Shown here: piece by piece, positions 1 to 3,000 of the stretch
How positions within the stretch are numbered: the stretch's first letter is position 1
Layout of the letters: each line of letters opens with the position of its first letter
Assembly (NCBI RefSeq): GCF_003018255.1
Contig: NZ_CP027440.1
DNA length: 64,000 nt
Direction: 5' to 3' (one strand)
Origin: Escherichia coli
GTDB taxonomy: Bacteria > Pseudomonadota > Gammaproteobacteria > Enterobacterales > Enterobacteriaceae
Position numbers: made by a program

Positions 1-3000
1 ATATTTCGTGTTTATTATGTTATAATGATATTTGAATGTATAATTATACTCCTGCATCATTTTACACTCGCCAGAATTTAATTTTTTTTGTATTTCTAGG
101 CTCATTAAGTTTTTAATCTCTTCACCATCAAAAAATGGCGACATATCTTCATTAATCCCATAAATATTATAATAATGATTAAGTGTATTTCCTTCTACGG
201 TTGCAGCAATCCATGTAGTATAATCATCTACTTTAATAGGGAATTTTTTCTTGGATAGTTCATTTTTTAAGCATGAGGCAATTTTATCTGCATCTTCTTT
301 GTTTGATAAAATATCATCAATTTTATTATCACCGAACTCAGTTGCAATTATCTTTACAAAGATCAGCAGAATAATAAACATTAATGCTGCTCCTGTTTTT
401 TTTATTGCTCCTAATATTTTGTTTCCTGTCATCTTGCAAATCTAACATAAAATTTAATGAGTCTTATTAATAAATTTAATTTCTTATGAGTTGTCAACCT
501 TCCATCAAGCAAACCGTGATCTAACAGCATGACTGTCTGCTTGATATGTGTTGTCGTCAACACAGTACAGTCCTTGAATACATATAACAAATTTGTTATG
601 TTGATACCTATGAACTACACTATCGAATACTACAGTGAAGAGGTCCGGCTGGAAGTCGATCAGCTTCCATTGAGTATGCGTGTCCGATACAAACATCTCA
701 TTGAACGTATGAAGGTATACGGCAGCAATCTCGGAGAACCTCATACCAGCGCCTTTGGTGATGGGCTTTTCGAACTCAGAATTAAAGGCAACGATGGGAT
801 TGCACGTGTTTTTTACTGCACTCTGACAGGGAAACGCATCATTATGCTGCATAGTTTCATTAAGAAAACGCAGAAAACACCGCCAGCCGAACGCAAAAAA
901 GCTGAAGCCAGAATGAAGGAGGTTAAGCATGACTGGTAAACGCATTACACCTACCATGACACACGACGAAATGGCAGCCAAATGGATGGAGGATCCGGCT
1001 TTCAAAGCAGAATACGACGCCATCGCCGACGAATTCGCACTACTTGATGAAATGCTGGCAGCACGAAAAGAAGCAGGCTTAACCCAGGCTGAAGTTGCTG
1101 AACGTATGGGAACAAAAGCGACTGCGATCACCAGAATGGAAAGCAATCTTGCATCAGGTATAAGCGGCCCATCATTTGCCACACTGAAAAAATTCGCCCG
1201 TGCTACAGGGAAAAAACTCCAGATCCGCTTCGTTTAACTCTCCACTACCGCGCCGTCATTCTGGCGGCGCTTTACCCCAGAGAAATATCAATCACCGGAT
1301 TGCCACATCCCACTCCGGCTCCTGCCATCTCAAATCCGGTGAATCATTTCTCACCGGAATAACCATTACGTCCTTTTCCCTCCGCTCCCTTTCTATCGCC
1401 ATCACAGCCAATGCTGCAACCATGATGTATTTTTGTTCGTCGGTTCCTGTTTCATAACGACGCATGAGGGTAAACTCGGGGCGATCAGTAACCTCAATGA
1501 TTTCGTTAATTTCTTTAATTTCGAGAGGAATATCCATGAGTTTAGTCTCCTTTGACATTACATGCCCACACTGTTTAAAAGAGCGAGCTGTTATTGAGGC
1601 ATTTGCCGAAAAACAAATTGAAAAAACACCTCTTTTTAACGTCGCTTTTGTATGCAGAAGTTGTCATCGAGGAGGTGTTGCTATTGTTGAAATCCCATCA
1701 GACCACTATCACGGCCCCATGGCGGAAAGCCAGAAAAAAGACCTCGATATTCTGATTTCAGGAAATAGCCAGTACCGTTTCCGCAAGATCTATCCTGCGG
1801 TCAAAAAAATTACCGCACCAGAATATACGCCCCCGGTTGCAGACCGTACTTTTGTTGAGGCAAAAGAGGATTTACAGAGGAGGCGGTACGACACAGTGGT
1901 AATTCTTTGTCGCAGAGTCCTCGATATCTCCACGAAAAAACTGCTCGGCGATGAAGCAGGAAAAGAATCGCTGTCGCAACGTATTCAGATGATTTACAAA
2001 AAAGGGCTGATCACTGAACAGATGAAGGAATGGGCTCATATTGTACGAATTGATGCCAATAAAGCAGTTCATACAGATGAAGTTTTCACACCAATTGAGG
2101 CAAGCCAGATCCTGAGTTTTACCGAAATGTTTTTAGTCTACGCCTTCACTCTGCCTGCAATGGTGGCAGCCAGACGTGAACAAAAAAGATCAGATTCAGC
2201 CTCTATATGAATCACTTTTCTGAACACGTAAGCCCCCGTCATTCACGACGGGGAGAACATCAATCCCTCTGCACTCCCCCGCCAGAATGCCAGCACACGC
2301 TGCATCGTTTCGCTGTTACGGCACTCGCGACAAATTATGTTGTAGCGTCTGTCGTAGCGCCGGATTTCCCCATCAGGTAATGCCCGGATAAGACCAGGGT
2401 CAATAACAACCGGTTTCTTTGCCTTTGCTCTCGAGAGTTTTTTGCGGGCATTTTGCCAGTCCTTACGCGCCTGATCAGACGGGAATAAACCATAACCTGA
2501 GTCGAATATAGCGCCACTGACAACCAGTTCTCTGGACAAACGTCTGACAGCTGTCTTGCTGACTCCGGTTTCAGTAGCCAGTTGCCTGAACGTTCCCCGA
2601 CCATTCAGGCGCACGAGCTCCACAATACGTGCCTTCAGTTCTTCCCGCTGTTCGGGTGTAAATACTTTTGCCATAAGCTCTCCAGTTATCACTTTTCCGA
2701 TGCAATACTGCTGGATGAATCGGTAATCTGCATGACAAGTTCCCGGTGTTTATTCAGCTCACGTAGTGCAGCACAGACACGCTCCCACTTCTGGACCTGT
2801 TTTTTGGCGCGACGAAGTTCACGACTGGCGGCCCGTAGAGGTGGAAGGGTCACTGCACCAGCATATTTTTCGGTGAACGACGGAACATCCCGGATAAACT
2901 CATCTGTACAGGCCTTTGCCGTGCCCTCTGACATCAACGGAAAACGATTCAGTTCGTCGCCTGACGCGCTGTTTTCTGCTTCGTGTGTGATATTCTCATC

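Follow-up and report, generated by a model that had tools for sequence, protein, structure and literature searches.

Does the overlapping gene pair near one end of this Escherichia coli window (64,000 nucleotides, the whole stretch of DNA that was analysed) constitute a toxin-antitoxin (TA) system, and if so, to which family does it belong, how might it be controlled, and whom does it serve? The original prediction had read it as an overlapping toxin-first pair at 610-1237 with an 11-nt overlap. Re-reading the ORFs and their overlap gave the same picture (Table 1), the 11 nt common to both genes being ATGACTGGTAA (929-939). Our best explanation, which we hold with considerable confidence, is that the pair is a self-contained bicistronic type II TA cassette of the Gp49/Tad-Ata ('HigBA-like') kind, travelling as a prophage passenger. 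By sequence similarity both genes are related to proven toxin/antidote pairs, namely N15 gp49/gp48, Streptococcus pneumoniae HigBA and Mycobacterium tuberculosis (Mtb) HigB(TAC). The same arrangement of a Gp49 gene followed by a helix-turn-helix (HTH) gene was seen again in 42 distinct loci, some of them from Methylospira and from metagenomes; the two genes overlap there by 11, 14, 8, 20 or 4 nt (23 nt in one locus), and because it recurs in so many loci the pairing lies far beyond chance. Gene order and overlap are retained in distant taxa, non-phage contexts included. The search for related loci used a closer alignment of 12 sequences, the alignment of 40 sequences being without a conserved stretch.

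Table 1. Features of the toxin-antitoxin cassette (window positions)
Feature	Position	Strand	Remarks
Putative -35 hexamer	574-579	+	TTGAAT; read from the sequence as part of the cassette's own putative promoter
Candidate operator	584-599		Perfect 16-bp palindrome ATAACAAATTTGTTAT, core TAACA-N4-TGTTA at 585-598; candidate site for the HTH antitoxin
Putative -10 hexamer	597-602	+	TATGTT; begins on the last two bases of the palindrome
Toxin gene	610-939	+	109 aa; ATG 610, TAA 937-939; Gp49/Tad family, RelE/ParE superfamily
Antitoxin Shine-Dalgarno	916-922	+	AAGGAGG, read from the sequence; inside the toxin 3' end, 6 nt before ATG 929
Antitoxin gene	929-1237	+	102 aa; ATG 929, TAA 1235-1237; N-terminal helical extension, C-terminal XRE-type HTH
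GC-rich hairpin	1250-1270	+	9-bp stem, 3-nt loop, then TTTA; marks the cassette's 3' end; probable transcription stop

The choice of toxin start is supported by three concordant lines: the PHROG 2523 profile covers residues 1-109 end to end, PGAP gives 109 aa in E. coli EC2, and the homologues are mostly 109-111 aa long. An alternative in-frame ATG at 598 would yield 113 aa and is the sole usable ATG in some alleles. Alleles SCU-104, PhiR5_2, L056 and L057 carry ATA in place of the ATG at 610, and would need the upstream ATG, which would be absent from any transcript beginning at 610.

The product of the first gene matches the Pfam family Gp49 (PF05973; E 2e-25, covering positions 3-90 of the 90-position model) and phrog_2523 of PHROG (E 4e-45), and PF05973 is present in all listed homologues. 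Profile searches of the PDB placed S. pneumoniae HigB at the top (6AF3, chain A; 5.5e-16), with Mtb HigB1 (7AWK/7NBU) at 2e-7. The AF2 model (pLDDT 93) contains a beta-sheet (residues 46-85) followed by a C-terminal helix (92-108); Foldseek returned 6AF4, 7NBU and 7AWK first (TM 0.73-0.79), then an archaeal RelE, V. cholerae HigB2 and YoeB. As modelled, the protein adopts the RelE/BECR fold and ends in a long helix, so that the RelE-fold toxin of PF05973 originally expected from a profile search was indeed recovered, by family as well as by predicted fold. RefSeq already labels it "type II TA system RelE/ParE family toxin". Across 40 homologues, reaching down to 35% identity, residues E55, R57, R66 and K85 do not vary, and the same alignment shows conservation at Q88 and K89; together the six residues align with E66, R68, R77, K95, Q98 and K99 of Mtb HigB(TAC), in which the K95A mutation abolishes toxicity and cleavage. 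Judged from this alignment, the catalytic Glu/Arg/Arg/Lys set of ribosome-dependent mRNA endonucleases is present.

The family name requires some care. No match was found to the canonical HigB families of Pfam (PF05015 and PF09907), Gp49 being the sole family at E <= 10, and a canonical HigB identity was accordingly rejected. By sequence the family is Gp49/Tad, and 'HigB' fits the toxin loosely, in the sense of a toxin-first order with an XRE antitoxin. NCBIfam TIGR02683 (upstrm_HI1419 RelE/ParE toxin) scored 21.3 bits, below its curated cut-off of 62.85. Toxin residues 49-99 alone match positions 233-283 of the 293-position PADLOC profile for NsnC, a partial match that points to a common domain and not to membership.

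The downstream protein matches HTH_3 of Pfam (E 9e-11) and phrog_1373 (E 1e-36), and its profile matches in the PDB are headed by S. pneumoniae HigA (6AF3, chain B; 1e-6), followed by Mtb HigA3 (6LTY) and Mtb HigA2 (7EWC). The HigA-type HTH antitoxin foreseen at this position is therefore well accounted for by sequence searches. Its AF2 model (pLDDT 85.5; helices 12-20, 23-49, 53-60, 64-76 and 83-93) returned from Foldseek generic XRE-HTH proteins only, with weak E-values (0.02-0.15) and the HigA of 6AF3 at rank 42; since these structural matches are weak and generic, the HigA/Ata-like assignment leans on sequence profiles and gene context. The antitoxin ends directly after the HTH domain. Neither a SecB-like chaperone gene nor a C-terminal chaperone-addiction extension was found, the antitoxin being followed by the hairpin and then by a convergent ORF of 81/88 aa; a three-gene TAC/HigBAC reading was rejected on these grounds.

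Among the closest described systems is gp49/gp48 of phage N15, which like the present pair is toxin-first and carried by a temperate phage. N15 gp49 shares PF05973 and 45% identity with our toxin over 91 residues (E 1e-25), and gp48 shares 38% identity with the antitoxin over 74 residues (E 2e-15). N15 gp49/gp48 was shown to be a stabilising TA (Dziewit et al. 2007), and both it and Tad-Ata stabilise plasmids. N15 gp49 has a canonical AGGAGG Shine-Dalgarno (SD) and a 1-nt overlap with gp48, whereas the present toxin has no SD and an 11-nt overlap. Tad-Ata of Paracoccus aminophilus pAMI2 is of the same kind, with a Gp49/COG4679 toxin and an XRE-HTH antitoxin, and Gp49/Tad-type toxins have been grouped as RelE-superfamily interferases (Makarova et al. 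2009). For both partners, S. pneumoniae HigBA (6AF3/6AF4; toxin Foldseek TM about 0.75) is the best solved relative: its HigB, like our toxin, has the extended C-terminal helix that is usual in toxins of the Gp49 type, but is only ~21% identical in the structural alignment and, at 141 aa, has an N-terminal extension. Mtb HigB1 (HigB-TAC, Rv1955; 7AWK, 7NBU) is a Gp49-family protein of the same fold (TM 0.74-0.79) and a ribosome-dependent A-site mRNA nuclease, and by analogy offers the best mechanistic model for our toxin; TAC, however, comprises three genes with a SecB-like chaperone, the present pair lacks the third gene, and toxin identity is ~24%. The canonical HigBA systems (Proteus vulgaris Rts1 HigB, V. 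cholerae HigB-1, E. coli HigB/YgjN; PF05015, PF09907) resemble the pair in being toxin-first, with an XRE-HTH antitoxin and a RelE-superfamily toxin, and they are autoregulated through promoter palindromes, a counterpart of which may be the candidate palindrome in our putative promoter. According to the literature, Gp49-domain toxins have little similarity to classical HigB proteins. Gp49/HTH_37 pairs of Tn3-family transposons belong to the same families and are also toxin-first passenger cassettes of mobile elements; they adjoin a res site and tnpR/tnpA, whereas the present pair lies in a prophage nin region with its own promoter-like region.

That the pair is prophage-borne, as had been proposed, follows from the match of window positions 1-15579 to phage POCJ13 (99.3-99.4%), from an integrase at 14365-15528, and from the host flank ynfG/ynfH/dmsD/clcB, the prophage being inserted at ynfG. 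The DNA of the pair is 100% identical to that of the Shigella Stx phages POCJ13 and 75/02. The carrier is a lambdoid prophage of the POCJ13/75-02 (Shiga-toxin) type, with the pair as a passenger ('moron') in its nin region, and hence one more accessory module on the Shiga-toxin-type prophages of Shigella and E. coli. The shared DNA, from 543/584 to 1270/1272, occurs in at least three different insertion contexts, which defines a discrete, autonomous cassette of ~0.7 kb (543/584 to 1270). A crude ORF count puts most of the flanking coding on the strand opposite to the pair in 37 of 46 contexts. Of 5426 complete E. coli genomes only 96 carry the cassette; its distribution is patchy and mobile. 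Scanning the window in full for Rfam families and tRNAs returned nothing.

The pair is in itself ordinary: its family is well described, and its exact DNA has been deposited and machine-annotated as a RelE/ParE toxin with an HTH partner. A search of the literature on POCJ13 and on HigB-type TAs of Stx phages found no experimental work on this pair. What is added here are the boundaries and contexts of the cassette, its usual antisense placement, an operator candidate conserved in position, and a toxin start devoid of an SD.

The control region is best read by comparison. Many diverged loci have, like the window, a TTGnnn 17 nt upstream of a -10-like hexamer: the former varies among TTGCGC, TTGACG, TTGACA, TTGACT, TTGCGA, TTGTAC and TTGTGC, and the latter appears at the same place as TAnnnT (TATGTT, TATCTT, TATACT, TATTAT, TAGTAT, TACCGT), followed by 6-7 non-conserved bases and the toxin ATG. 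From the placement of the -10, transcription is expected to start at ~609-610. A consensus promoter/terminator scan of 300-2400 did not call this promoter, because its weak hexamers match at 8 of 12 positions only, nor did it reveal an internal antitoxin promoter inside the toxin gene; the promoter model is putative and drawn from comparative geometry only. The palindrome proposed as operator is unique in the window; two 16-bp palindromes in the window against about one expected is not significant alone. Its core motif, in addition, keeps its spacing to the toxin ATG in loci with toxins of 57-72% identity, and in a clade of 46-50% identity it shifts symmetrically to TAGCA-N4-TGCTA. The antitoxins of that clade carry the predicted recognition helix TASAVSR in place of KATAITR or KAPAVAR. 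Candidate operator and predicted recognition helix thus appear to change together.

The translation signals of the two genes are very unequal. No SD was found upstream of the toxin start, and the computed duplex with the 16S 3' end is +0.6 kcal/mol at that start versus -12.4 kcal/mol at the antitoxin SD; the medians over the 42 loci are +1.1 and -12.4 kcal/mol, respectively. As there is no SD and the ATG lies where transcription should start, the toxin mRNA may be leaderless. In the clade of 46-50% identity the toxin ATG overlaps the putative -10 (TAACATG), and this geometry is therefore not universal.

The cassette ends in a hairpin, which the original prediction had placed at 1249-1272 and called weak. 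The hairpin itself stands, with arms at 1250-1258 and 1262-1270 (9 pairs including one G-U), but the epithet does not: a folding energy of -19.1 kcal/mol was computed for its 61-nt context, with z = -5.2 relative to shuffled sequences. All six aligned contexts retain it (a single C-to-T substitution leaves a G-U pair), and it lies at the very edge where the shared cassette DNA stops (1270-1272). The terminator scan (300-2400) did not call it because just TTTA follows, without a U-tract; we nevertheless regard it as a probable transcription stop.

Taken together, these features suggest the following mechanism for the TA cassette. The pair would be transcribed from its own sigma-70 promoter, opposite to the early-right operon of the phage, and could therefore be expressed in the lysogen. 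An antitoxin dimer, alone or with the toxin, would bind the palindrome between -35 and -10 and repress the operon. The toxin would be poorly translated, having no SD and an ATG at the predicted transcription start, and the antitoxin well translated from a strong SD embedded in the toxin 3' end; the antidote should therefore exceed the toxin. The hairpin would end the transcript. Should the supply of antitoxin fail, through loss of the prophage, proteolysis, or the transcription shut-off of an infecting phage, free toxin would, by analogy with its characterised relatives, enter the ribosomal A site and cut mRNA, and growth would stop. A toxin start that conservedly lacks an SD, together with a candidate operator that covaries with the recognition helix, would make a clean, testable example of antidote excess in toxin-first operons.

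What such a cassette is selected for is a separate matter; the pair could influence prophage stability or the exclusion of other phages. One possibility, which we entertain without giving it even chances, is that the cassette acts in abortive infection or in superinfection exclusion. An infecting phage would then stop the supply of antitoxin or titrate it away, and the RNase thus set free would shut down translation ahead of progeny formation. The cassette does sit in an accessory region of the prophage, beside other accessory candidates, namely a gene for a DUF4145 protein, which weakly matches PD-T7-4, and an AT-rich island. Prophage-encoded HigB-type systems are known to defend, E. coli HigBAC restricts lambda, and NsnC, a defence protein in PADLOC, has a Gp49-like domain at its C-terminal end. 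HigBAC, however, senses phage via a SecB-like chaperone, which is absent at the present locus, and PADLOC matched no complete known defence system.

Selfish addiction, in which cells that lose the prophage or the cassette are killed or arrested, as with N15 gp49/gp48 and Tad-Ata, is likewise a tentative proposal and falls short of being probable. Homology to these stabilising systems argues for it, as do the occurrence of the autonomous unit at several unrelated insertion points and its patchy distribution among E. coli genomes. N15, however, exists as a linear plasmid prophage and has an evident use for stabilisation, whereas the present pair resides in an integrated lambdoid prophage; these are seldom lost by segregation, and the benefit is less obvious.

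An inert toxin, catalytically or functionally, would leave the locus as mainly a gene for a small autoregulated transcription factor. There is precedent in Mtb HigB2 and HigB3, Gp49-family proteins that are non-toxic in M. smegmatis or E. coli, and the ATG at 610 is lost in some alleles; yet all mapped catalytic residues of our toxin are intact, four of them across the whole set of homologues. The ORF is moreover intact in all six closely examined prophage contexts and 57-100% conserved across most related loci, which indicates purifying selection on the protein, and we consider inertness improbable.

Similarly doubtful, in our estimate, is a more elaborate version of the TA cassette in which a leaderless toxin mRNA from A610, an operator inside the promoter spacer and the antisense placement in the pR operon let it sense prophage induction. 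In induced cells, antiterminated transcription from pR would traverse the cassette head-on, interrupt the supply of antitoxin and free the RNase; if true, the cassette would shape host shut-off or the outcome of lysis versus lysogeny.

Finally, the HTH protein might be a phage regulator (a Cro/CI-like repressor or an anti-CRISPR-associated Aca) with an unrelated ORF upstream, in line with its weak matches to RstR, the 434 repressor and Aca3, but this very improbable reading was rejected, given that the upstream ORF is confidently Gp49/RelE-fold, that both genes co-occur and overlap outside phages too, and that the prophage already has cI, cro and cII ~5 kb from the pair. As to existing records, the RefSeq annotation of POCJ13 gives the toxin in a truncated version of 87 aa and places over its putative promoter an ORF that is probably spurious.

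The toxin of the gene pair has a single Pfam match, Gp49/PF05973 (E 2e-25), and its closest solved sequence relative is HigB of S. pneumoniae (6AF3_A). A profile of 40 homologues, with identities down to 35%, brought the match to 6AF3_A to 5.5e-16 and added M. tuberculosis (Mtb) HigB1 (7AWK and 7NBU, 2e-7). The AlphaFold2 model (pLDDT 93, pTM 0.85) begins with a pair of helices, continues with a sheet of four strands, and closes with a long helix at the C-terminus; Foldseek ranks 6AF4, 7NBU, and 7AWK highest for it (TM 0.73-0.79), followed by archaeal RelE, V. cholerae HigB2, other RelE proteins, and YoeB. 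The antitoxin matches HTH_3 (E 9e-11), and its profile matches HigA of 6AF3 (1e-6) as well as Mtb HigA3 and HigA2, which partner Gp49-type toxins; its model has a five-helix XRE domain after an N-terminal helical extension, with generic XRE matches only in Foldseek. The toxin-first pair overlapping by 11 nt (ATGACTGGTAA) is confirmed, and the original prediction of a RelE-fold toxin and a HigA-type HTH antitoxin is supported, but its HigBA label is retained only as "HigBA-like": the pair is more precisely of the Gp49/Tad-Ata type than a canonical HigBA. Pairs of this kind are known, and public records already annotate this one: RefSeq names the toxin a "type II toxin-antitoxin system RelE/ParE family toxin", and in the record of phage PhiR5_2 the two genes are called HigB and HigA. 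Our additions are modest: the cassette boundaries; a conserved, covarying candidate operator; the Shine-Dalgarno (SD) asymmetry, with a toxin start that may be leaderless; and mistakes in how RefSeq annotates POCJ13.

Features of the toxin-antitoxin locus and its surroundings (window positions unless a locus is named)
Feature	Position	Strand	Remarks
Putative -35, TTGAAT	574-579		upstream of toxin
Perfect palindrome, ATAACAAATTTGTTAT	584-599		candidate operator; within the 17-nt stretch after TTGAAT
Putative -10, TATGTT	597-602		then 7 nt, then ATG 610
Toxin ORF	610-939	+	109 codons
Antitoxin SD, AAGGAGG	916-922		precedes antitoxin
Antitoxin ORF	929-1237	+	102 codons
Hairpin	1250-1258/1262-1270		nine pairs, one G-U; 3-nt loop
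Convergent ORF, phrog_8371	1292-1558	-	81/88 aa, unknown function; overlaps start of DUF4145 gene
DUF4145 gene, phrog_1305	1536-2210	+	224 aa; just 3' of the pair
Integrase gene	14365-15528
Toxin in POCJ13 RefSeq NC_025434	676-939	+	only 87 aa, ATG 676
Hypothetical ORF in POCJ13 RefSeq	505-696	-	63 aa; spans putative promoter and toxin start (this ORF and the 87-aa toxin together: L001 9026-9460)
ATA-allele loci	L005 4049-4390; L002 4794-5135; L056; L057		cassette alleles forming a single group

The pair is homologous to that of phage N15, whose gp49 is 45% identical to the toxin and gp48 38% to the antitoxin; the family is named after that pair. Stabilisation by N15 gp49/gp48 and by Tad-Ata of pAMI2, both toxin-antitoxin modules, was demonstrated by Dziewit et al. 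(2007). A recent review counts Gp49 as one of thirteen RelE/ParE families and describes its members as degrading mRNA in a ribosome-dependent way, with the toxin gene placed first. Mtb HigB(TAC), i.e. HigB1, is a ribosome-dependent A-site mRNase that loses toxicity and cleavage upon K95A, with E66, R68, N73, R77, F93, K95, Q98, and K99 as the proposed catalytic set (Mansour et al. 2022, PMC9098466). In the profile alignment E66/R68/R77/K95/Q98/K99 correspond to E55/R57/R66/K85/Q88/K89 of our toxin and F93 to F83; E55, R57, R66, and K85 show no variation across the 40 homologues. The best-supported model is a standard type II system, in which the antitoxin would repress the operon at the palindrome and sequester the toxin, unequal translation would keep the antitoxin in excess, and its loss would set a ribosome-dependent mRNase free. 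The pair may be selected either for addiction, by analogy with N15 and Tad-Ata, or for phage exclusion, by analogy with prophage HigBAC; a SecB-like chaperone is absent at the locus, and PADLOC matched no complete defence system, its sole toxin match being a domain in common with NsnC. Less probably the toxin is inert, as Mtb HigB2 and HigB3 were reported to be; its catalytic residues are intact and invariant, which speaks against this.

The 610 start of the toxin is favoured by the phrog_2523 match, which covers the 109 aa from end to end, by the PGAP call in E. coli EC2, whose locus is almost identical, and by homologue lengths of mostly 109-111 aa. Translation could alternatively begin at an in-frame ATG at 598; in strain STEC299 a stop follows the upstream ATG, leaving the 610-position ATG as the sole workable start. 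The toxin ORF was unbroken in all six prophage contexts translated. Set beside the 109 aa that PGAP calls in E. coli and the full-length PHROG match, the 87-aa toxin and 63-aa ORF of NC_025434 look like annotation artefacts.

Loci with toxins 57-100% identical repeat one putative promoter layout: TTGnnn, 17 nt including TAACA-N4-TGTTA, and TAnnnT beginning on the last TA of the palindrome, followed by 6-7 non-conserved nt and the ATG. The start codon thus falls at the predicted transcription start, so the toxin message may be leaderless. The toxin has no SD upstream; over 42 distinct loci its median anti-SD duplex is +1.1 kcal/mol, and that of the antitoxin -12.4 kcal/mol; N15 gp49, in contrast, has a normal SD. 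A more remote clade (46-50% identity) has TAGCA-N4-TGCTA as its palindrome and TASAVSR in place of KATAITR or KAPAVAR as the predicted recognition helix of the antitoxin, a joint change that should be expected of an operator-repressor pair. Both hexamers are weak, and the palindrome by itself is statistically unremarkable. The leaderless reading stops short of that clade, whose ATG and putative -10 overlap; it is also at odds with alleles in which ATA replaces the ATG at 610 (SCU-104, PhiR5_2, and the IMG/VR contigs L056 and L057). There the remaining toxin ATG lies upstream, inside the putative -10, and the antitoxin is intact; toxin translation may be silenced or lowered.

The hairpin following the operon had been described as weak; it is present, but at -19.1 kcal/mol in its 61-nt context (z = -5.2) it lies far below shuffled sequence. 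Only TTTA follows it, and a terminator scan made no call at 1250-1270.

Prophage carriage, as originally proposed, is borne out: over window 1-15579 the DNA agrees at 99.3-99.4% with the integrase-proximal arm of POCJ13, and an 821-base stretch surrounding the pair has 100% identity to the Shigella Stx phages POCJ13 and 75/02. Homology stops at about 15579, the prophage being inserted at ynfG, and the remaining ca. 48 kb are ordinary E. coli/Shigella chromosome (ynfG, ynfH, dmsD, clcB, etc.). In POCJ13 the pair (gp23/gp22) has replication/ren-like genes on one side and the nin/Q/stx region on the other, and is antisense to that operon; the stx region would lie outside the window, before its start.

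The pair behaves as a mobile cassette, whose DNA is present in 96 of 5426 complete E. coli genomes and chromosomal every time. We compared four prophage contexts: EC2/POCJ13 (AT-rich genes upstream, DUF4145 gene downstream), RMDEC465 (P22AR antirepressor; ninE), STEC299 (rha; DUF4222 gene), and SCU-104/PhiR5_2 (ORF6N antirepressor; a 246-nt hypothetical gene, then the DUF4145 gene). The common DNA runs from 543 or 584 to 1270-1272, directly past the hairpin. By a crude ORF count, flanking ORFs are mainly antisense to the cassette (37 of 46 distinct viral-contig contexts). The shared DNA has at its 5' edge another inverted repeat, TGTGTTG-N4-CAACACA (547-564), which is partly kept in RMDEC465 and SCU-104 and missing from STEC299; this repeat might serve as a second operator or be left over from the agent that moves the cassette. 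The DUF4145 gene, which PADLOC matches weakly to PD-T7-4 (E 1e-3), and the phrog_8371 ORF accompany the cassette in POCJ13, EC2, SCU-104, and PhiR5_2, not in RMDEC465 or STEC299, and may form a separate accessory or defence module. Positions 1-480 are very AT-rich (ca. 27% GC vs 47% in the prophage arm), hold the 5' part of a minus-strand gene starting at 381 (a hypothetical POCJ13 gp25 homologue cut by the window edge), and look like another foreign insertion adjoining the cassette. Direct repeats of ca. 60 bp (4573-4658, 5345-5407, and 5439-5497; 100% identity between two copies over 41 nt) lie within and just upstream of an O-like replication initiator gene (4232-5314), encode the repeated peptide QQHQPQQPEAD, and could be iterons of the origin or have arisen by local duplication.
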